Positions 21,593 to 50,206 are shown, numbered from the stretch's first letter. The stretch: 64,000 nt of DNA from an uncultured Luminiphilus sp. (GCA_963926325.1 CAWUXF010000013.1:28177-92176), one strand, 5' to 3'. Translations and numbers: made by a program. Notes: generated by a model from the sequence alone, not told the origin.

Positions 21593-22144
21593 ATGCGATC
21601 ACACGCCTTAAAGGCTTTTATCTTGGCGATATGCAGCTTGAGCATGATCAATATAGCGCTCGCAGCTGGTCCACAAATGGGGCCGATCATCAAGAATTAC
21701 GGTCCCGTGATGACACCACCAGAGGGCGCATTTAATCTGGCAGTCGACACACATTACAAAGTGTCAATGGATATGGGTACAACGCCAGAATTCCCCGGCG
21801 ACCTTAATCGACACCTGGTGTCTGCTGCGCGCTTCTTAAATATGAGTGCGCAAACTGGGATACCACCGGAGCATGTGGAATTTGCGTTGATCGTCCATGG
21901 TAAAGCCGTCAAAGATATACTCACCGATGCGGCACATCAGGCGCGCTATAACGAGGCTAACCCCAACAGCCAGTTACTGGCAGAACTAAAGGCCGCAGGG
22001 GTTAACATCTACCTCTGCAGCCAAACCTCTGCCTTTCGAGGTTTTGCGCCGGAAGAATTCAATCCAGTGGTAACGATGGCGGTCTCGGCAATGACCGCGC
22101 ATGTCTATCTGCAGCAGAGTGGCTACACGCTGATTCCGTTCTGA
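21593..22144 (+). CDS. Secreted DsrE-family (COG1416-like) protein
   Basis: 183 aa with a Sec-type signal (MRSHALKAFILAICSLSMINIALA|AG). The C-terminal half (GVNIYLCSQTS...VSAMTAHVYLQQSGYTLIPF) resembles DsrE/DsrF-like family proteins. The family call comes from motif recall, not a search. Confidence 0.6.
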   Translation: MRSHALKAFILAICSLSMINIALAAGPQMGPIIKNYGPVMTPPEGAFNLAVDTHYKVSMDMGTTPEFPGDLNRHLVSAARFLNMSAQTGIPPEHVEFALIVHGKAVKDILTDAAHQARYNEANPNSQLLAELKAAGVNIYLCSQTSAFRGFAPEEFNPVVTMAVSAMTAHVYLQQSGYTLIPF

Positions 22145-22203
22145 TATTTCGCGACGCAAGTCCCCAGCGCTACTTAGCATTATGCCCGGCGCAGTGAATA
22201 CAC

Positions 22204-22238
22204 AAAAAAAAGCTGGTGATATCGGCAATATCACCAGC
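22204..22238 (-). terminator. Rho-independent terminator after the YeeE/YedE pair
   Basis: A perfect 10-bp stem GCTGGTGATA / TATCACCAGC (22212-22221 / 22229-22238) is followed on the minus strand by a run of 8 T (22211-22204). It lies immediately downstream of the stop at 22262. Confidence 0.7.
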
Positions 22239-22261
22239 GGCTAAAAAAACAGATCTGAGCG

Positions 22262-22789
22262 CTATTCGTAGCGGTCCTTCAGCACAAAGAACGCCATAAA
22301 CAACAATAAAGCGCTAAAAGGAATGGCGATATAAATGCCGCTAATACCCAGCAGCGACTCCAGTGTGACTTTGCCAAAATTCAAAGGTTCAATGAGTGCG
22401 CTTTCTAGATAGGGAAATGCCAAGGCAAAGATCATTACGCCAACTAAGCCCCCTATTAGGGTAAAAATCGCATCGCCCTTACCTTCCGCGCTTCCGACGA
22501 CACAGGTGCCAGGACAATAACCCGACACGGCCCAGCCAATGCCAAAAATAACGCCGCCGATGGCAACACCGCCAATATATACCGGCTTAATGCTCAGGTT
22601 TGCCAACCCACCAAAATCGAGTAGATAAACGCCCAGTGTGCCAACACCAATCGCAGTCATCATTAACTTGATAATCCACATATCTTTTAGCAACAGCGTG
22701 CCCATGATACGACGGTAACTTGACGCACCACCAAGGAACAAAATAGCGCCAAAGGCGCAGCCTATAAAAAATCCTATAAAGAGTGTCAT
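22262..22789 (-). CDS. YeeE/YedE family sulfur-compound transporter, half-size subunit
   Basis: 175 aa polytopic membrane protein with the conserved Cys motif SGYCPGTC typical of the sulphur-transport (YeeE/YedE) domain. Confidence 0.85.
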   Translation of the reverse strand: MTLFIGFFIGCAFGAILFLGGASSYRRIMGTLLLKDMWIIKLMMTAIGVGTLGVYLLDFGGLANLSIKPVYIGGVAIGGVIFGIGWAVSGYCPGTCVVGSAEGKGDAIFTLIGGLVGVMIFALAFPYLESALIEPLNFGKVTLESLLGISGIYIAIPFSALLLFMAFFVLKDRYE

Positions 22790-22793
22790 TTGA

Positions 22794-23330
22794 TTAGCCT
22801 CGCTTGCGATAGAGAATATGCGCCATCACGATAGCCGCACCAAAAGTAAATATCCCAAAAATGAAAGAGCTCACTGCGAGCTGTGAAATACCGCTGATCA
22901 TATGGCCACTGGTACAGCCGCCCGCTAGGCGCGCACCAAATAGCAGCAACACGCCGCCAAAAAATGCGGTGGCAAATCGCTTAACACGGGAGCTACCAAA
23001 TACGCCTACCCACATTTCCGGCATGCTACCCTTGTCTGCATCAGGTTGTGCTTTACGGAAAATTCGCGCCGTAATCCCGCCCCCTGCAAGCATTCCAATG
23101 ACTAACATCCAGCCGTAGCCCACACCCCAACTTTCCTTTTCACCATACTTCGCTAGGTACGCATTGGCCTCTGCAAAGGCCGGTGCAACTTGGTGAACAA
23201 CAGCCGCGTCTGAGACGACAAACTGTGTCGAAACACCCAGCGGTTTCACCAACGCGGTGGCAATTGTGAGTAAGACCCCCAGCGCAATGCCCGCCACTTT
23301 CCAAGAGATGATCGCTTTTTGTTCTTGCAT
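22794..23330 (-). CDS. YeeE/YedE family sulfur-compound transporter, half-size subunit
   Basis: Membrane protein with the GGCTSGHMISG motif. I prefer the ATG at 23330 (GGAG 8 nt upstream). An in-frame ATG at 23345 is the alternative. There is a 4-nt gap to the downstream partner. Confidence 0.85.
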   Translation of the reverse strand: MQEQKAIISWKVAGIALGVLLTIATALVKPLGVSTQFVVSDAAVVHQVAPAFAEANAYLAKYGEKESWGVGYGWMLVIGMLAGGGITARIFRKAQPDADKGSMPEMWVGVFGSSRVKRFATAFFGGVLLLFGARLAGGCTSGHMISGISQLAVSSFIFGIFTFGAAIVMAHILYRKRG

Positions 23331-23520
23331 GACTTTGACTCCCATTATTAGCTCTGCTTTTCTTTTCTTTTTGGATATTACTAAAGAGAATTAGCATATT
23401 ACCAAAACAAAGGTTAAATCATAGCTTTAACGAAGAACCTTTTCTTATAAAAACCACCATGCTGATAACAACAGCTGCTAGCCTTAGCTATGACCTCGCA
23501 GTCAAATGAGAGAAGAAACA

Positions 23521-25585: not shown

Positions 25586-25670
25586 CCTGCACGGGCGCTC
25601 CCTGGGCAGGGTAGCAGCGGGCTCATAACTGCAGAATATTGAGTGGTAAGGTTTATCCAAAGAGCTGTCC

Positions 25671-25766
25671 AATCCACACCAATCCACACCAATCCACACC
25701 AATCCACACCAAGCCACACCAAGCCACACCAAGCCACACCAAGCCACACCAAGCCACACCAATCAC
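25671..25766. repeat. Perfect 10-bp tandem repeat, 9 full copies in two blocks
   Basis: AATCCACACC x4 (25671-25710), then AAGCCACACC x5 (25711-25760), then a partial AATCAC. Intergenic between apt and the SDR gene, ending 45 bp before the ATG at 25811. Confidence 0.97.
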
Positions 25767-26659: not shown

Positions 26660-28927
26660 ATGATCCATAGACGTTTTGTATTAAAGGCAGGAGCAACTGC
26701 AATGCTTTCAGTAACAGCTGGTCAGTCCGCTGCGACAATAGAAAAAGCGGGGCGCTTGTTAGCATCTCCGTCGGACAATGAGTCTCTCCCTGCCTATTTG
26801 CAGCGCGTCCTCACTGACGCCGACCCCATGGCCTATGCGCGATGGCTCGGTGCGGCGAATGACTATAAAGAAGGTGATGAAATAATTGGCGTTGCCGCAC
26901 CAGACGAAGCGACTCGACAGCTCGCCAGAAGATTATTGGCCAACACCACGATCGCCGAAGTCGATGCGAATGCGCCGCACCGTGATCAAGTTTTTTCGCT
27001 GATCGAAGAAACCACTGATGCGAATATTCGCGCCAGTCTCAAGGATATGACATTGGGCCAACTCAAAGCATTTGTTTTGACGCGCTCTGAATCCGATATC
27101 CATACGCTGCGACAGGGCTTATCTAGCGACGTTATTGCGTCACTTGTCAGGCTGATGAATAACGATGAACTTATTACCGTAGGCGCTAAAGTTTTTAACC
27201 CACTACCCGGCAGCGCAATAGGTGCCAAGGGGTATATGGGCGCACGGGTTCAGCCCAACTCACCCACAGATGACCCAGAAGATATTCGTTGGCAGGTCTT
27301 TGACGCCTTTGCTTATGGGGTCGGCGATGTTCTCTTAGGAACCAACCCCGTATCAAGCGAGCCAGAATCGGTTGCTGCGATACAGCAGACCTTAAAAGAT
27401 GTGCTGGACACTTTTGAACTAGACGCACATATCCCCCACTGTGTGCTGTCGCATATCGATGTGCAGGCTGAGGTTGAAAACGACGCACCCGGGCTGACTG
27501 ATCTTTGGTTTCAGAGCATCGCAGGTAACGACGAAGCCAATACCACCTTCGATGTGTCGGTGGAGAAAATGCGCCAGTATGCCAGCGAGCGAACGGGCAC
27601 TTACGGCTTATACTTTGAGACAGGGCAAGGCGCCGACTTTACCAACGGTCATGGCTATGGCGTTGATATGGTGACCTATGAATCGCGCAAATATGGCTTT
27701 GCACGTGCATTGACCGCAGATGTACAGCGCGTGAGCAAAGGTGCAGCCTGGGTGCACCTTAACGATGTGGCTGGGTTCATCGGCCCCGAGGTCTTTAGAA
27801 CCCGCGAGCAGTTAGTGCGCTGTTGCCTCGAAGATATTGTGATGGGCAAGCTACATGGTCTTTGTATTGGTCTCGATATCTGCGCAACATTGCATATGAG
27901 CGTATCGCTAGATGACTTAGATTGGTGTATCGACCAAGTCATGCCTGCCAATCCAGCCTACCTGATGGCACTGCCGACAAAAATAGATCCAATGCTGGGC
28001 TATTTAACTACCGGCTACTTAGATCATGTTCGAATCCGTGAGACGTTTGACTATCGCGTTAACGACCCGATGTGGCAGTTTTTCCAGCGATTAGACGTGA
28101 TCGACAGCCAAGGTAATCCCGGGCCTAATTTCGGCGATCCTATTGCTGTCTATTTGGCCTATCGACGTGCCAAGGGCGACAGACGAGCCGAGGCTGAGCT
28201 GCGCGACGACGCCCATCAGCAACTCACTAGGATTCGTGATCGCGGCGTATTTATCGCCGAGGGTTATGGTGATCGAATTTTTGATCTTGAACCTGCGCTT
28301 GAGCGCAAGGTACGCAGTATTACCGAAGAGGCCCGGGACTGTATCTGGGAGCAGTTCGACGAACCCTTTCGTGCGAAGTGGTCTGCTGATGTATTTGTAG
28401 CGACCCAATCGAGTGATCGCGAAGACTACATTTTGCATCCTGACTCGGGAGAGTCGCTATCGCCAGAATCGATGGCGCAGCTTGCCCAATGGGATCGCGC
28501 CACCGATAACTATGATGCCATTATCGTTATTTCTGATGGGCTCAACGCTCGTGCCCTGAAGCAACAAGATCAGCTCGAAGTCCTGATCACAGAATTACGT
28601 AAAGGGATTAGTGACGCCGGCATGCAAGTCGCCGAACAAAATATATTGGTGGAGTCCGGCCGAGTGCGTGCAGGTTATAAAATTGGCGAGCAGTTATTTA
28701 AAACTAAGCAAGGTCCTCGCAATGTGTTCCATATTGTCGGAGAGCGCCCTGGCACTGGGCACAATACATTGTCCGTCTACTTAACCCGCGCTGACGCCAG
28801 TGTCTGGGCCACACCAAATACAGTTGACCACAACATCACTCGGGTCGTTTCAGGGATTGCACACACAGCGTTACAACCAGAAAAAGCAGCACGCGATGTT
28901 ATGCAAATTCATGGCGCACTAGCCTGA
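26660..28927 (+). CDS. Fused ethanolamine ammonia-lyase large+small subunit (EutB-EutC) with a twin-arginine signal-like leader
   Basis: 755 aa. Residues ~43-498 align with E. coli EutB (GVGDVLLGTNPV, YFETGQGA, AGFIGPEV, LEDIVMGKL). Residues ~575-755 align with EutC (VISDGLNA, GRVRAGYKIGE, IVGERPG). The N-terminus is MIHRRFVLKAGATAMLSVTAGQSAA-T. Confidence 0.9.
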   Translation: MIHRRFVLKAGATAMLSVTAGQSAATIEKAGRLLASPSDNESLPAYLQRVLTDADPMAYARWLGAANDYKEGDEIIGVAAPDEATRQLARRLLANTTIAEVDANAPHRDQVFSLIEETTDANIRASLKDMTLGQLKAFVLTRSESDIHTLRQGLSSDVIASLVRLMNNDELITVGAKVFNPLPGSAIGAKGYMGARVQPNSPTDDPEDIRWQVFDAFAYGVGDVLLGTNPVSSEPESVAAIQQTLKDVLDTFELDAHIPHCVLSHIDVQAEVENDAPGLTDLWFQSIAGNDEANTTFDVSVEKMRQYASERTGTYGLYFETGQGADFTNGHGYGVDMVTYESRKYGFARALTADVQRVSKGAAWVHLNDVAGFIGPEVFRTREQLVRCCLEDIVMGKLHGLCIGLDICATLHMSVSLDDLDWCIDQVMPANPAYLMALPTKIDPMLGYLTTGYLDHVRIRETFDYRVNDPMWQFFQRLDVIDSQGNPGPNFGDPIAVYLAYRRAKGDRRAEAELRDDAHQQLTRIRDRGVFIAEGYGDRIFDLEPALERKVRSITEEARDCIWEQFDEPFRAKWSADVFVATQSSDREDYILHPDSGESLSPESMAQLAQWDRATDNYDAIIVISDGLNARALKQQDQLEVLITELRKGISDAGMQVAEQNILVESGRVRAGYKIGEQLFKTKQGPRNVFHIVGERPGTGHNTLSVYLTRADASVWATPNTVDHNITRVVSGIAHTALQPEKAARDVMQIHGALA

Positions 28928-48853: not shown

Positions 48854-50206
48854 ATGCCGTCGTCTAAATACCCAGAAATAAAACGCTTTCTTGAGGCCTA
48901 TAGCTCGGTAACTATGATCGAGGCACTGATAACCGATTGCAACGGCATTGCGCGCGGTAAGCTCGTGCCCTCAGCAAAACTTCGCAGCACATTTGAGCCC
49001 GGCTTAAAAATGCCTAAATCTGCCTTGGCCCTCGACATTTGGGGAAGGGACGTTAAAGAACTGGCGTTAGAAAATGGCGATATAGATGGCTACTGTCTTG
49101 CCATACCGAGCTCACTGACGCCGCTACTGACACCCAATGGTATCGATTCGGCGCAAGTCATTATGACCATGCACGACAGCGATGGGCAGCCCTTTATGGG
49201 GGATCCACGGCAGGTATTACAAGTTATTGTTGACCGCTTTAAGGCCTTAGGCCTGCGCCCATGTGTCGCAGCAGAGCTGGAGTTCAGCCTTTTAGTCGAT
49301 CCGGGTCACGACAGACCAATCAGCGATGCGGTGTCCGTAAAGGATGATGTAGGCGGCAATCTTTACGCTTTAGATGCGCTAGACCAGCACCAGCAAATGC
49401 TCGATGAATTGCGTGCCTGCTTCGAGGTCCAAGGTTTGCCCTATGAAGGCATCATCAAAGAATATGCGCCAGCGCAATACGAAATCAATATGGCTCACAG
49501 CGCCGACACCATGGCATTGACCGACCACATAATCCAAATGCAGCGCAGCATTTTCACCACAGCGGCTCGCCACGGGCTAATCGCGAGTTTCATGCCCAAG
49601 CCGATGAGCGATGTCCCAGGTAACGGTATGCACGTGCACTGCAGCTTATTAGATGAACACGACAATAATGTATTTAGCGATGGTACGGCGCTAGGTAGCC
49701 CCCTGCTAAACAAAGCTATTGCGGGCTGTATAAAGTTACTGCCCGAAAGCATGCTGATGTTTGCCCCAAGCTTTAATGCCTATCGCCGCTTCCAGCCGGG
49801 CAACCATGCCCCCACATTTCCTGCATGGGGCTACGACAATCGTACAACGGCACTCCGCATTCCGGAGGGACCAGTCAATGCTATCCGCATTGAACACCGC
49901 GTTGCCGGCGCCGACGCAAATCCGTATTTAGCGATTGCAGCGGTGCTGATGGGTATACTTTACGGGATTGACAATAACTTAGAGGCGCCCCCAGCCATTG
50001 AGGGAAATGCTTATGAGCAGGAACCAGAAGAGCCGGTATTGCCGACGCTAATGGGGGATGCGATCAAGCGATTCAAACGATCTACCACCATTGGTGAGTA
50101 TATGAGCCCAGAGTTTCAGCGTATGTACTGTCTTGTAAAACAGCAGGAGTTAGACGAGTTCAACCACCGCGTAACCGAGTTTGAACTCGAGACCTACCTG
50201 CGCTAG
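48854..50206 (+). CDS. Glutamine synthetase family protein (gamma-glutamyl-amine synthetase, PuuA/GlnT-like)
   Basis: 450 aa with GS catalytic-domain motifs (...AAELEFSL..., ...GNGMHVHCSL..., ...NAYRRF..., ...ALRIP...RIEHRVAGADANPYL). Confidence 0.88.
   Translation: MPSSKYPEIKRFLEAYSSVTMIEALITDCNGIARGKLVPSAKLRSTFEPGLKMPKSALALDIWGRDVKELALENGDIDGYCLAIPSSLTPLLTPNGIDSAQVIMTMHDSDGQPFMGDPRQVLQVIVDRFKALGLRPCVAAELEFSLLVDPGHDRPISDAVSVKDDVGGNLYALDALDQHQQMLDELRACFEVQGLPYEGIIKEYAPAQYEINMAHSADTMALTDHIIQMQRSIFTTAARHGLIASFMPKPMSDVPGNGMHVHCSLLDEHDNNVFSDGTALGSPLLNKAIAGCIKLLPESMLMFAPSFNAYRRFQPGNHAPTFPAWGYDNRTTALRIPEGPVNAIRIEHRVAGADANPYLAIAAVLMGILYGIDNNLEAPPAIEGNAYEQEPEEPVLPTLMGDAIKRFKRSTTIGEYMSPEFQRMYCLVKQQELDEFNHRVTEFELETYLR

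Follow-up and report, generated by a model that had tools for sequence, protein, structure and literature searches.

A conserved twin-arginine leader predicts export of a fused, solitary EutB-EutC ethanolamine ammonia-lyase in an uncultured Luminiphilus sp.

Adenosylcobalamin-dependent radical enzymes are, to our knowledge, regarded as strictly cytoplasmic or microcompartment-bound because their cofactor relies on ATP-dependent helpers for synthesis, repair and exchange. A gene in a 64,000-nucleotide stretch of DNA from an uncultured Luminiphilus sp. (the whole stretch is referred to as the window) raises the question of whether some ethanolamine ammonia-lyases may act outside the cytoplasm, as its predicted product joins both subunits of the enzyme in one chain behind a putative twin-arginine (Tat) signal peptide. 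The initial annotation had proposed a single 755-aa ORF at 26660-28927, and this was confirmed on the + strand with an ATG start (Table 1).

Table 1. Coordinates of the fused eutB-eutC gene and its features in the window.
Feature	Position	Strand	Basis or remark
Complete ORF	26660..28927	+	ATG start, 755 aa and stop; leader, EutB, joint and EutC in one polypeptide
Predicted signal peptide, residues 1-25 (MIHRRFVLKAGATAMLSVTAGQSAA), possible signal-peptidase site SAA↓T	26660..26734	+	pLDDT, conservation profile
Twin-arginine motif R4-R5-F-V-L-K9 (consensus S/T-R-R-x-F-L-K)	26669..26686	+	TatP pattern match, invariance
h/c-region, residues 10-25	26687..26734	+	Inside 18-residue uncharged stretch (10-27), Kyte-Doolittle mean ~1.0
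Internal AGGAG (26689-26693), 8 nt 5' of Met15 ATG (26702-26704)	26689..26704	+	Start used by public calls
Residues 26-57	26735..26830	+	Poorly conserved spacer 26-40, then EutB N-terminal part outside NCBIfam match
EutB (large subunit) domain, residues 58-506	26831..28177	+	Pfam, NCBIfam, E. coli 3abo_A alignment
Substrate-site residues R196 (27245-27247), Q198 (27251-27253), N229 (27344-27346)		+	EutB, alignment to 3abo_A
Substrate-site residues E320 (27617-27619), D406 (27875-27877), M436 (27965-27967)		+	EutB, alignment to 3abo_A
Co-varying cysteines C388 (27821-27823), C423 (27926-27928)	27821..27928	+	Neighbouring predicted helices 382-398, 417-430
EutB-EutC joint, residues 507-554 (48 aa), family-specific	28178..28321	+	Replaces free EutC N-terminus
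EutC (small, cobalamin-binding subunit) domain, residues 555-750	28322..28909	+	Pfam, NCBIfam, Foldseek

The ORF contained neither an internal stop nor a frameshift, and its EutB-EutC architecture was common to all 120 best database relatives. At least five independent contigs, originating from different samples, encode an identical protein, which excludes an assembly artefact as the source of the fusion. The AlphaFold model of the 755-aa protein had a mean pLDDT of 85.7 and a pTM of 0.84. Profile searches placed Pfam EutB (PF06751) at residues 62-486 (E 4.9e-134; 447.9 bits, cutoff 25), NCBIfam EutB (NF011649) at residues 58-506 (573.7 bits, cutoff 554) and Pfam EutC (PF05985) at residues 555-750 (E 6.7e-33; 114.4 bits, cutoff 25.8). 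The NCBIfam EutC equivalog (NF003971) matched residues 557-750 at 90.1 bits, well short of its cutoff of 230, and the EutC domain is therefore divergent. The limits first assigned to EutB (43-498) and EutC (575-755) were approximately right in comparison with those given by the profiles (58-506 and 555-750). Foldseek comparison of the EutB part to 3abo_A yielded a TM-score of 0.87 (rmsd 2.8), and that of the EutC part to 7xrm_B and 3abo_B a TM-score of 0.71. The joint between the domains includes a predicted helix at residues 511-527, and a further helix (545-561) starts in the joint and runs into EutC; column conservation across residues 487-554 was 0.64. The Pfam EutC match begins at profile position 36 of 235, corresponding to residue 555, because the joint replaces the free N-terminus. 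Within EutC, the motifs SDGLN (625-629), GRVR (667-670) and GERPG (694-698) were invariant in 63 aligned relatives.

Window residues R196, Q198, N229, E320, D406 and M436 align to R160, Q162, N193, E287, D362 and M392 of E. coli EutB, the substrate-binding residues of 3ABO. All six were invariant in the 63 relatives and in the sampled clade, and with its substrate site intact the protein would be a real lyase, best explained as a catalytically competent, adenosylcobalamin-dependent ethanolamine ammonia-lyase with its subunits in one chain, the activity itself being predicted. Relative to E. coli EutB, the clade carries an insertion of about 8 residues after residue 350. Positions 388 and 423 were Cys in all sampled leader-bearing members and non-Cys in canonical EutB, and this pair may form a periplasmic disulfide. 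The substrate-site residues were changed in a divergent Tat-lipoprotein relative (P0134).

Public gene calls for the identical protein choose the Met15 start, giving a 741-aa product, and calls of this kind hide the leader. Counting against a start at Met1, only a weak AGG precedes this codon and the Shine-Dalgarno-like AGGAG sits ahead of Met15. However, the Met15 start was rejected after codon-level comparison with close relatives, where Met15 is replaced by Leu (TTG in L008) or Thr (ACC in L009) and the codons of the arginine pair vary synonymously (AGA CGT, AGA CGC, AGA CGA, CGT CGA, CGT CGG, CGG AGA), unlike the DNA 5' of the ATG, which cannot be aligned among relatives. These substitutions show selection on residues 1-14 as protein sequence, and the K-A-G-A codons give rise to the AGGAG incidentally. 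The possibility raised in the initial annotation, that orthologues consistently begin at M15 or M57 and lack the RR motif, failed in this comparison, and translation would start at 26660.

The leader reads MIH-RRFVLK, followed by a 16-residue stretch rich in A, G, S and T and then by SAA↓T. The RRxFLK-type motif had been located exactly (RRFVLK, residues 4-9), and H-R-R-F-V-L-K at residues 3-9 fits the TatP pattern RR.[FGAVML][LITMVF], a pattern that alone gives 15% false positives on cytoplasmic RR proteins (PMC1182353). The h-region was moderately hydrophobic with a mean Kyte-Doolittle value of 1.01, and its composition across the family (A 25%, G 15%, S 12%, L 10%, T 9%) agrees with the description of Tat h-regions as glycine-rich and leucine-poor (PMC7317946), as does that of the window protein. 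Its uncharged stretch of 18 residues exceeds the minimum of about 13 uncharged, moderately hydrophobic residues that we applied (PMC7317946, PMC1182353). S23-A24-A25↓T26 fits the -3/-1 rule, by which cleavage at this site is possible; the position is not conserved across the family. Residues 1-26 were modelled by AlphaFold as a lone helix with pLDDT below 50. At about 25 aa with an n-region of 3 residues, the leader is shorter than the Tat average of 37, which counts against it. In the alignment, residue 63 of the window protein corresponds to residue 21 of E. coli EutB, so that the extension ahead of EutB amounts to about 40-42 aa, in agreement with the ~42 aa claimed at the outset.

Among the 63 aligned relatives (57-90% identity), R4 and R5 were invariant in every sequence and L8 was more than 90% conserved. 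Column conservation was 1.00 for the RR pair, 0.73 for residues 6-8 and 0.29 for residues 9-25, and outside the leader 0.24 for residues 26-40 and 0.54 for residues 41-61. Retention of the RR pair while the h-region and spacer drift is the pattern expected of a signal peptide, and the alignment indicates that the leader is not due to chance. The 120 best database relatives included 110 with a complete N-terminus, and 103 of these carried the TatP pattern, with the consensus M-[LI]-H-R-R-R-F-L and with F or L at +3 and +4 after RR in 92 and 94 of the 103, respectively. In 76 of 80 species-representative genomes, the leader combined a twin-basic motif with a subsequent stretch that is uncharged and moderately hydrophobic. 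Eight of 10 sampled Myxococcota orthologues had MRRRTFM...LALASC and then a Pro-rich linker (a count that includes one VPGC that the scripted lipobox pattern had not flagged), and Bacteroidota orthologues had R-[RK]-x-F-L...L-N-G-C lipoboxes. A lipobox cysteine together with a twin-basic motif at the leader position in these two phyla is independent sequence evidence of export. Counting against export, a few clade members depart from this pattern, among them L078 and L084, where the leader is absent, and L086, whose leader is Sec-like. Also on this side, the Tat-signal HMMs PF10518 and TIGR01409 did not match the window protein and gave only weak matches in 11 of 63 (best E 0.019) and 8 of 63 (best E 0.0084) relatives, respectively; these models are too insensitive to decide on the leader.

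In the gene neighbourhood, Pfam or tblastn scans of 24 window ORFs revealed no eut, shell or tat genes, the remaining ~40 ORFs being judged from N-terminal sequence and length only, and no cobalamin riboswitch reached the Rfam gathering threshold anywhere in the 64-kb window. The statement that no eutA, eutKLMNS shell genes or riboswitch are visible thus held within these scans; the absence of eutA and shell genes is by itself not unusual because short eutBC loci are common (PMC9397018). No tblastn match to tatA, tatB or tatC was obtained in the 64-kb window with E. coli queries, a result that is uninformative for such a short piece. Neighbours in the window encode a ferredoxin, Apt, an SDR, a hypothetical protein, an HD-domain protein, a DksA-type protein and a Zn-ADH. 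The SDR lies 66 bp upstream as described, and was considered and rejected as a functional partner: it is present in the closest relative only (L007, 90% identical) and absent in L008, L009, L006 and L011. Similarly, the downstream 198-aa gene was rejected as a conserved partner, since L006 has a dissimilar gene in the corresponding place. Promoter and terminator scans around the gene did not rise above shuffled expectation. All-against-all ORF clustering of 80 related loci and the window identified no family in more than 12 of the 80 loci, and those recurring in up to 12 were generic planctomycete families. No eutA, eat or shell genes occurred in any inspected neighbourhood, and no permease or regulator in the 80 loci. 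The gene is solitary, and it is the lack of even a permease that is unusual here.

Several readings of the leader have to be weighed against Tat export. A cytoplasmic enzyme, either started at Met15 or carrying an N-terminal peptide with a role other than export (a microcompartment encapsulation peptide or a regulatory tail, for example), would agree with the ribosome-binding-like sequence and the 741-aa calls discussed above, and every characterised ethanolamine ammonia-lyase is cytoplasmic or housed in a microcompartment. This is the least probable of the alternatives, as it conflicts with the selection on residues 1-14, the loss of Met15 in relatives and an RR pair invariant across phyla, while lipobox cysteines in two phyla would be senseless for a cytoplasmic protein, shell genes were found near none of the 80 loci, and the peptide is uncharged, A/G-rich and not amphipathic. 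Alternatively, Sec (or either pathway) could export an unfolded apo-enzyme that acquires cobalamin in the periplasm, the transit place of imported B12, with RR serving as a mere basic n-region. Bacteroidota sequences with RK or KK in place of RR, the L086 leader and the negative Tat HMMs can be interpreted this way. We nevertheless consider Sec export quite unlikely: Sec n-regions accept any basic residues, so that an invariant RR with F/L at +3/+4 at ~55-60% identity is a Tat signature, and it is in the cytoplasm that adenosylcobalamin, the active cofactor form, is produced. Tat export also tolerates Lys in place of the second Arg (PMC1182353).

If the leader is exported but left uncleaved, the enzyme would be tethered to the periplasmic face of the inner membrane in the manner of Tat-inserted, N-terminally anchored proteins. 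Membrane attachment is common in the clade, the Myxococcota and Bacteroidota orthologues being evidently lipid-anchored, SAA↓T matches the -3/-1 rule only, and many planctomycete leaders lack an obvious AxA. However, an h-region of 16-18 uncharged residues with a mean Kyte-Doolittle value near 1.0 is well below typical transmembrane anchors and small residues occupy -3 and -1, which makes an uncleaved leader unlikely. A different doubt concerns what an exported protein would act upon, as another vicinal amino alcohol (1-amino-2-propanol, 2-amino-1-propanol or serinol-like head groups) could be the substrate, or the protein could mainly bind cobalamin or ethanolamine. The clade insertion, the clade-specific Cys388/Cys423 pair, the altered substrate site of P0134 and the missed NCBIfam EutC equivalog cutoff (90 versus 230 bits) point in this direction; in view of the six E. 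coli substrate-contact residues invariant in the clade and the passed NCBIfam EutB cutoff, we regard such a change of function as very improbable.

The reading that we favour, and consider moderately probable from sequence, is that the protein is a periplasmic ethanolamine ammonia-lyase, exported by Tat with its cofactor loaded, which serves to scavenge nitrogen. The first ~25 residues would act as a twin-arginine signal peptide, and the protein would fold and bind adenosylcobalamin in the cytoplasm, presumably the sole site of cofactor adenosylation. With the cofactor bound between EutB and EutC, the complete holo-site is contained in a single fused chain. The ~80-kDa holo-protein would then be exported by Tat and freed into the periplasm after cleavage near SAA↓T, orthologues from Myxococcota and Bacteroidota probably being lipid-anchored instead. 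Periplasmic ethanolamine, for example from phosphatidylethanolamine head groups, would be converted to ammonium, which would be taken up, and to acetaldehyde, a toxic and volatile product that would arise outside the cytoplasm and would therefore call for no permease, microcompartment or acetaldehyde dehydrogenase encoded alongside. The initial suggestion of an exported B12 lyase, periplasmic or membrane-tethered, is supported by the RR leader and lipoboxes across phyla, with export itself predicted. The ~83-kDa precursor (~80 kDa mature) is within the size range of known Tat cargo. Counting against export, we know of no periplasmic adenosylcobalamin enzyme; ethanolamine ammonia-lyase readily undergoes suicide inactivation, and reactivation by EutA consumes ATP, of which the periplasm has none; adenosylcobalamin breaks down in light, and the likely host (Halieaceae) is an inhabitant of sunlit surface water; and the canonical enzyme is an alpha6-beta6 assembly, too large for export as such. 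In agreement with the claim that an extracytoplasmic form is undescribed, a full-text literature search, part of which missed the unhyphenated enzyme name, found no report of an exported ethanolamine ammonia-lyase. Papers containing both enzyme and export terms mentioned them unrelatedly.

Compared with canonical EutB/EutC of E. coli, Salmonella and Listeria (PDB 3ABO, 2QEZ; EC 4.3.1.7), the window protein has the same domains, fold and substrate-site residues and presumably the same adenosylcobalamin radical chemistry yielding acetaldehyde and ammonia, at an identity of only ~31% for EutB and 24-26% for EutC. The canonical subunits are two separate polypeptides, whereas here they are fused through the joint with an export leader of ~40 aa added, and the N-terminus that in enterobacterial EutC carries a microcompartment-targeting peptide has been replaced by the joint. 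The surroundings of the gene also differ, as they lack a eut operon, the EutA reactivase, shell proteins and a riboswitch, and no components of the eut metabolosome (shell EutKLMNS, EutA, EutE, EutC encapsulation peptide) were seen near the gene in the window or in the 80 related loci. Short eut loci, consisting of eutBC with the eat permease and sometimes eutR, occur in Actinobacteria and most Proteobacteria (PMC9397018). They resemble the present gene in encoding a lyase without microcompartment or eutA, probably mainly for nitrogen, but need two cytoplasmic subunits and an adjoining permease, while here an export signal is present.

Tat-exported corrinoid reductive dehalogenases (RdhA/PceA) are a precedent for a corrinoid enzyme with a twin-arginine signal that is exported with its cofactor. 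Neither their sequence nor their fold is related to that of the window protein, which has no Pfam match of this kind, and they differ in their Fe-S clusters, RdhB anchor and cob(I)alamin redox rather than adenosyl radical chemistry. Periplasmic deaminating enzymes, such as methylamine dehydrogenase, the copper amine oxidase TynA and periplasmic asparaginase, release ammonia and aldehyde outside the cytoplasm. The logic of harvesting amine nitrogen without a substrate transporter while keeping aldehyde outside is the same, by analogy only, as these enzymes use TTQ, TPQ/Cu or no cofactor, have no B12 and share no homology.

The clade was found in at least 553 species, mostly Planctomycetota, with further members in Bacteroidota, Myxococcota, Verrucomicrobiota and marine Halieaceae, and in database annotation its genes appear simply as "EutB", frequently with the start truncated so that the signal is hidden. 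The EutB-EutC fusion noted initially was confirmed in the window ORF and is not unique to this clade, as leaderless fusions occur in bacteria (P0174, P0186, P0189, P0202, P0221) and in the eukaryotes Paratrimastix pyriformis, Andalucia godoyi, Anaeramoeba flamelloides and Blastocladiella emersonii. The eukaryotic proteins are the nearest relatives outside the exported clade (44-51% identity). Leaderless fusions have the same single-chain architecture without the twin-arginine leader, and most are without the Cys388/Cys423 pair.

Taken together, these observations may describe the first extracytoplasmic adenosylcobalamin-dependent radical enzyme: a cross-phylum clade exported by Tat in holo form, in which fusion lets one signal peptide carry the holo-site, the periplasm replaces the Eut microcompartment as protection against acetaldehyde, ethanolamine nitrogen is gained without permease, reactivase or ATP, and Cys388/Cys423 perhaps form a disulfide. 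We hold this combined reading tentatively, at a little short of an even chance. If the clade is truly periplasmic, it would raise the question of how export and continued activity without a reactivase are possible for a radical cofactor that is fragile and sensitive to light and oxygen. It would also represent a second, membrane-based answer to acetaldehyde toxicity beside the Eut microcompartment, and the scoring of ethanolamine in genome-based nitrogen-cycling models would change for the many species that carry these solitary genes.

The gene under study is a single uninterrupted ORF with an ATG start, and Pfam and NCBIfam profiles together with PDB alignment confirmed the single-chain EutB-EutC with an N-terminal extension that the initial annotation had described. 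A PDB sequence search aligned residues 63–494 with residues 21–449 of E. coli EutB (3abo_A) and residues 558–712 with EutC, so that the protein starts approximately 40–42 residues ahead of normal EutB; the 48-residue joint between the two parts lies outside both profiles. At least five contigs, independent of one another and drawn from different samples, carry the identical protein, which rules out an assembly artefact as the source of the fusion. An AlphaFold model (63 relatives; mean pLDDT 85.7, pTM 0.84) was confident apart from residues 1–31, which were modelled as a lone helix with pLDDT <50, and matched E. coli EutB with TM 0.87 and rmsd 2.8 Å and EutC with TM 0.71.

Features of the fused EutB-EutC gene, its neighbours and related loci (window coordinates unless a relative's locus is named)
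Feature	Position (nt)	Residues	Detail
EutB-EutC gene	26660..28927 (+)	1–755	755 aa
RRFVLK motif	26669–26686		
AGGAG and Met15 ATG	26689–26704		from K-A-G-A codons, 8 nt before ATG
EutB domain, Pfam		62–486	E 4.9e-134
EutB domain, NCBIfam		58–506	573.7 bits (cutoff 554)
EutC domain, Pfam		555–750	E 6.7e-33
EutC domain, NCBIfam		557–750	90 bits vs equivalog cutoff 230
C388	27821–27823	388	
C423	27926–27928	423	
Upstream neighbours			ferredoxin, adenine phosphoribosyltransferase, SDR
Downstream neighbours			hypothetical membrane protein, HD-domain protein, DksA-type protein, Zn-ADH, pilin, QueC/QueE, Tol-Pal
Tandem repeat	25669–25762		10-bp CCAAGCCACA, 9.4 copies, 98% matches
DsrE-family, two YeeE/YedE and DUF1415 genes	21593–23345		
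Glutamine-synthetase-like gene	48854–50206		Gln-synt_C, E 5.8e-95
BLUF gene, locus L006	9426–9923		
BLUF gene, locus L009	7156–7680		

Identity to characterised enzymes was only ~31% for EutB and 24–26% for EutC. The residues that we take from the 3ABO literature to be the substrate contacts of E. coli EutB (R160, Q162, N193, E287, D362 and M392) correspond in the PDB alignment to R196, Q198, N229, E320, D406 and M436, which were invariant in 63 relatives and in every clade member sampled, as were the EutC motifs SDGLN, GRVR and GERPG in the 63 relatives. Because of this invariance we conclude that the protein is, as judged from its sequence, a genuine ethanolamine ammonia-lyase (EAL) despite the low identity. 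One divergent fused relative from Pseudomonadota MAGs (P0134; 779 aa, 37% identity), with a Tat leader and a lipobox, carries the substrate-site changes Q198R, N229D, C408S and M436I and is possibly an exported lyase acting on another substrate.

The N-terminus reads MIHRRFVLKAGATAMLSVTAGQSAA followed by TIEK, and its RRFVLK motif lies exactly where the initial annotation had placed it. HRRFVLK matches S/T-R-R-x-F-L-K and the TatP pattern RR.[FGAVML][LITMVF] (PMC1182353). The 18 uncharged residues after the motif have a mean Kyte-Doolittle hydropathy of only ~1.0, too weak for a transmembrane anchor, and are rich in Gly, Ala, Ser and Thr, in keeping with published accounts of Tat h-regions (PMC7317946). 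Across the 63 aligned sequences, R4 and R5 were invariant and L8 was more than 90% conserved, with column conservation of 1.00 for the RR pair, 0.73 for residues 6–8, 0.29 for the h-region, 0.24 for the next spacer and 0.79 for EutB, a profile indicating a signal peptide rather than a folded domain. The TatP pattern occurred in 103 of the 110 N-termini that were complete in the 120 top-ranking database relatives (consensus M-[LI]-H-R-R-R-F-L). The predicted leader has fewer residues than an average Tat signal, and the short curated HMMs PF10518 and TIGR01409 gave no match to the window protein and weak matches in 11 and 8 of the 63 relatives, respectively.

In public annotation the identical protein starts at Met15 and has 741 aa (P0001–P0003, and likewise P0006 and P0008), a choice explained by the AGGAG that precedes Met15, as Met1 is preceded by a weak AGG only. 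Comparison with five Halieaceae/Pseudomonadales relatives showed that the first 14 codons are kept at the protein level, that the Arg-pair codons vary synonymously (AGA CGT, AGA CGC, AGA CGA, CGT CGA, CGT CGG and CGG AGA) and that the sequence 5' of the ATG is unalignable. The initial annotation had allowed that orthologues might start at Met15 without the RR motif; residue 15 in the relatives is instead Leu (TTG) or Thr (ACC) and the RR pair is kept. A Met15 start was thus ruled out, and these codon-level data place the translation start at 26660. The database protein P0050, called from "MKEVALG...", and locus L011 come from the same 58,253-bp contig, on which the frame extends upstream as MQTRRLFMKEVALG. 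Public calls systematically start at the internal Met or otherwise downstream and thereby hide the twin-arginine leader.

When N-termini were re-derived from DNA for 80 species-representative genomes, a twin-basic motif with an uncharged stretch was present in 76; the others comprised one N-terminus cut by a contig end, two leaderless proteins (L078, L084) and one Sec-like leader (L086). Most sampled Myxococcota leaders (MRRRTFM...LALASC, then a proline-rich linker) and the Bacteroidota leaders (R-[RK]-x-F-L...L-N-G-C) combine the twin-basic motif with a lipoprotein lipobox cysteine, and Lys in place of the second Arg is compatible with Tat export (PMC1182353). Since a lipobox would be pointless on a cytoplasmic protein, it provides a second, independent line of evidence for an extracytoplasmic location of the clade. 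The periplasmic or membrane-tethered lyase proposed in the initial annotation is thus supported by RR conservation and lipobox cysteines, strong comparative evidence for a predicted export. Bacteroidota leaders of four loci (L058, L067, L075, L076) end L/F-N-G-C-D or C-N, and Asp often directly follows the lipobox cysteine in orthologues of this phylum (C-D-I-F, C-D-F-W, C-D-L-Q). The Bacteroidota lipoprotein export signal for surface exposure is negatively charged, and the Asp resembles it by analogy.

Several other readings were weighed against a soluble, Tat-exported EAL. That the enzyme is membrane-tethered instead of soluble is unlikely, as the h-region is short and weak. We give still less credence to export of the apo-protein by Sec with cofactor pick-up in the periplasm, given that both arginines are invariant and F/L at +3/+4 nearly so. 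An exported enzyme with another substrate or role is quite improbable in view of the invariant substrate site. The TatP pattern by itself gives 15% false positives on cytoplasmic RR proteins (PMC1182353); a cytoplasmic enzyme, translated from Met15 or bearing a non-export peptide, is nevertheless the least probable reading, as the codon-level start comparison and the lipobox-bearing leaders of relatives both speak against it.

All leader-bearing proteins fell into a single lineage when 1.84 billion cluster representatives were searched and the EutB domains compared in a rough neighbour-joining tree. The closest proteins outside it were fused EutBC of eukaryotes (Paratrimastix pyriformis, Andalucia godoyi, Anaeramoeba flamelloides and Blastocladiella emersonii; P0122, P0125, P0130, P0132, also P0124, P0128, P0146), none with a leader; P0124 (1110 aa) has a ~400-aa N-terminal extension that is C2-domain-like by eye. 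As leaderless fusions also occur in the canonical bacterial EutB clade (P0174, P0186, P0189, P0202, P0221), what is new is that a fused lyase bears an export leader, and not the fusion itself. Cysteines C388 and C423, on neighbouring predicted helices, co-vary and are specific to the leader-bearing clade apart from P0122, the nearest eukaryotic sister, and P0134; in canonical EutB the corresponding residues are A/V/T and L/I/V. The pair is a possible, putative periplasmic disulfide.

Relatives are encoded in at least 553 species genomes of those scanned. The best 80 of these were mainly Planctomycetota, with Halieaceae (Luminiphilus, Haliea), other Gammaproteobacteria, Myxococcota (Myxococcus, Archangium), Bacteroidota (including Saonia flava), Verrucomicrobiota, Gemmatimonadota and Balneolales; the nearest named relative among the matches listed was a Luminiphilus MAG (90% identity), which makes Halieaceae (OM60/NOR5 group) the probable origin of the window. 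Two contigs, binned as the archaeon Nitrosopumilus (L024) and as Limnohabitans (L076) yet with planctomycete-like and Bacteroidota-like gene versions, respectively, are probably mis-binned.

The window gene sits amid unrelated housekeeping genes, and the relatives' neighbourhoods are wholly unlike it; clustering of all ORFs from the 80 loci found no companion family in more than 12. The SDR gene noted initially does lie upstream, but as a partner it was rejected, being common only to the 90%-identical relative. Between the adenine phosphoribosyltransferase and SDR genes lies an intergenic tandem repeat that creates a spurious 63-aa minus-strand ORF. Elsewhere in the window, a DsrE-family gene stands beside two YeeE/YedE sulphur-transport genes of half length, whose separate ORFs encode the N- and C-terminal halves of Sulf_transp, followed by a DUF1415 gene. 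A glutamine-synthetase-like protein consisting of the catalytic domain alone is encoded 20 kb from the EutBC gene; such enzymes include gamma-glutamyl-amine synthetases of an alternative ethanolamine pathway (PMC6529630). In two Luminiphilus-type loci (L006, L009), 67% identical BLUF blue-light sensor genes lie directly upstream of the EutBC gene, on the same strand and 50–80 bp off, at the edge of a bch/puc photosynthesis cluster. Adenosylcobalamin is light-labile, which makes this adjacency curious, although it may be mere synteny.

In the window no eut genes, shell genes, ethanolamine permease or cobalamin riboswitch were seen. The absence of eutA and shell genes is ordinary by itself, since many genomes have a short locus of just eutBC and a permease (PMC9397018). 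Those loci have a permease, whereas the window lyase is solitary without even that, as a periplasmic enzyme would allow.

The proposed mechanism builds on three features: the gene is solitary, its single-chain product contains the whole EAL catalytic unit in conserved form, and the leader, of the twin-arginine type, is conserved as well. Tat carries folded, cofactor-loaded proteins. Because adenosylcobalamin would be made only in the cytoplasm and bind between EutB and EutC, a single signal peptide on the fused chain would suffice to carry the complete holo-site through Tat. The ~80-kDa monomer would fit the Tat size range, which the canonical alpha6-beta6 assembly would not, and any higher assembly would form only after export. 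Ammonium set free in the periplasm would be available for uptake, and acetaldehyde would form outside the cytoplasm, making a permease, microcompartment and dedicated aldehyde dehydrogenase unnecessary. Such an enzyme would have to do without the ATP-dependent reactivase and to withstand oxygen and light. Carrier taxa appear to be largely particle-attached degraders or predators, for which phosphatidylethanolamine head groups of lysed cells would be a plausible nitrogen source.

Databases label these proteins just "ethanolamine ammonia-lyase subunit EutB". A full-text literature search found no EAL with a Tat signal, no periplasmic or lipoprotein EAL and no account of this fused clade, with the unhyphenated spelling poorly covered and a prior mention thus possible; texts with both EAL and export terms used them in unrelated contexts only. 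Overall, the leader-bearing proteins form a large clade that has gone unstudied, in which the enzyme is known but its predicted location and its packaging are new.
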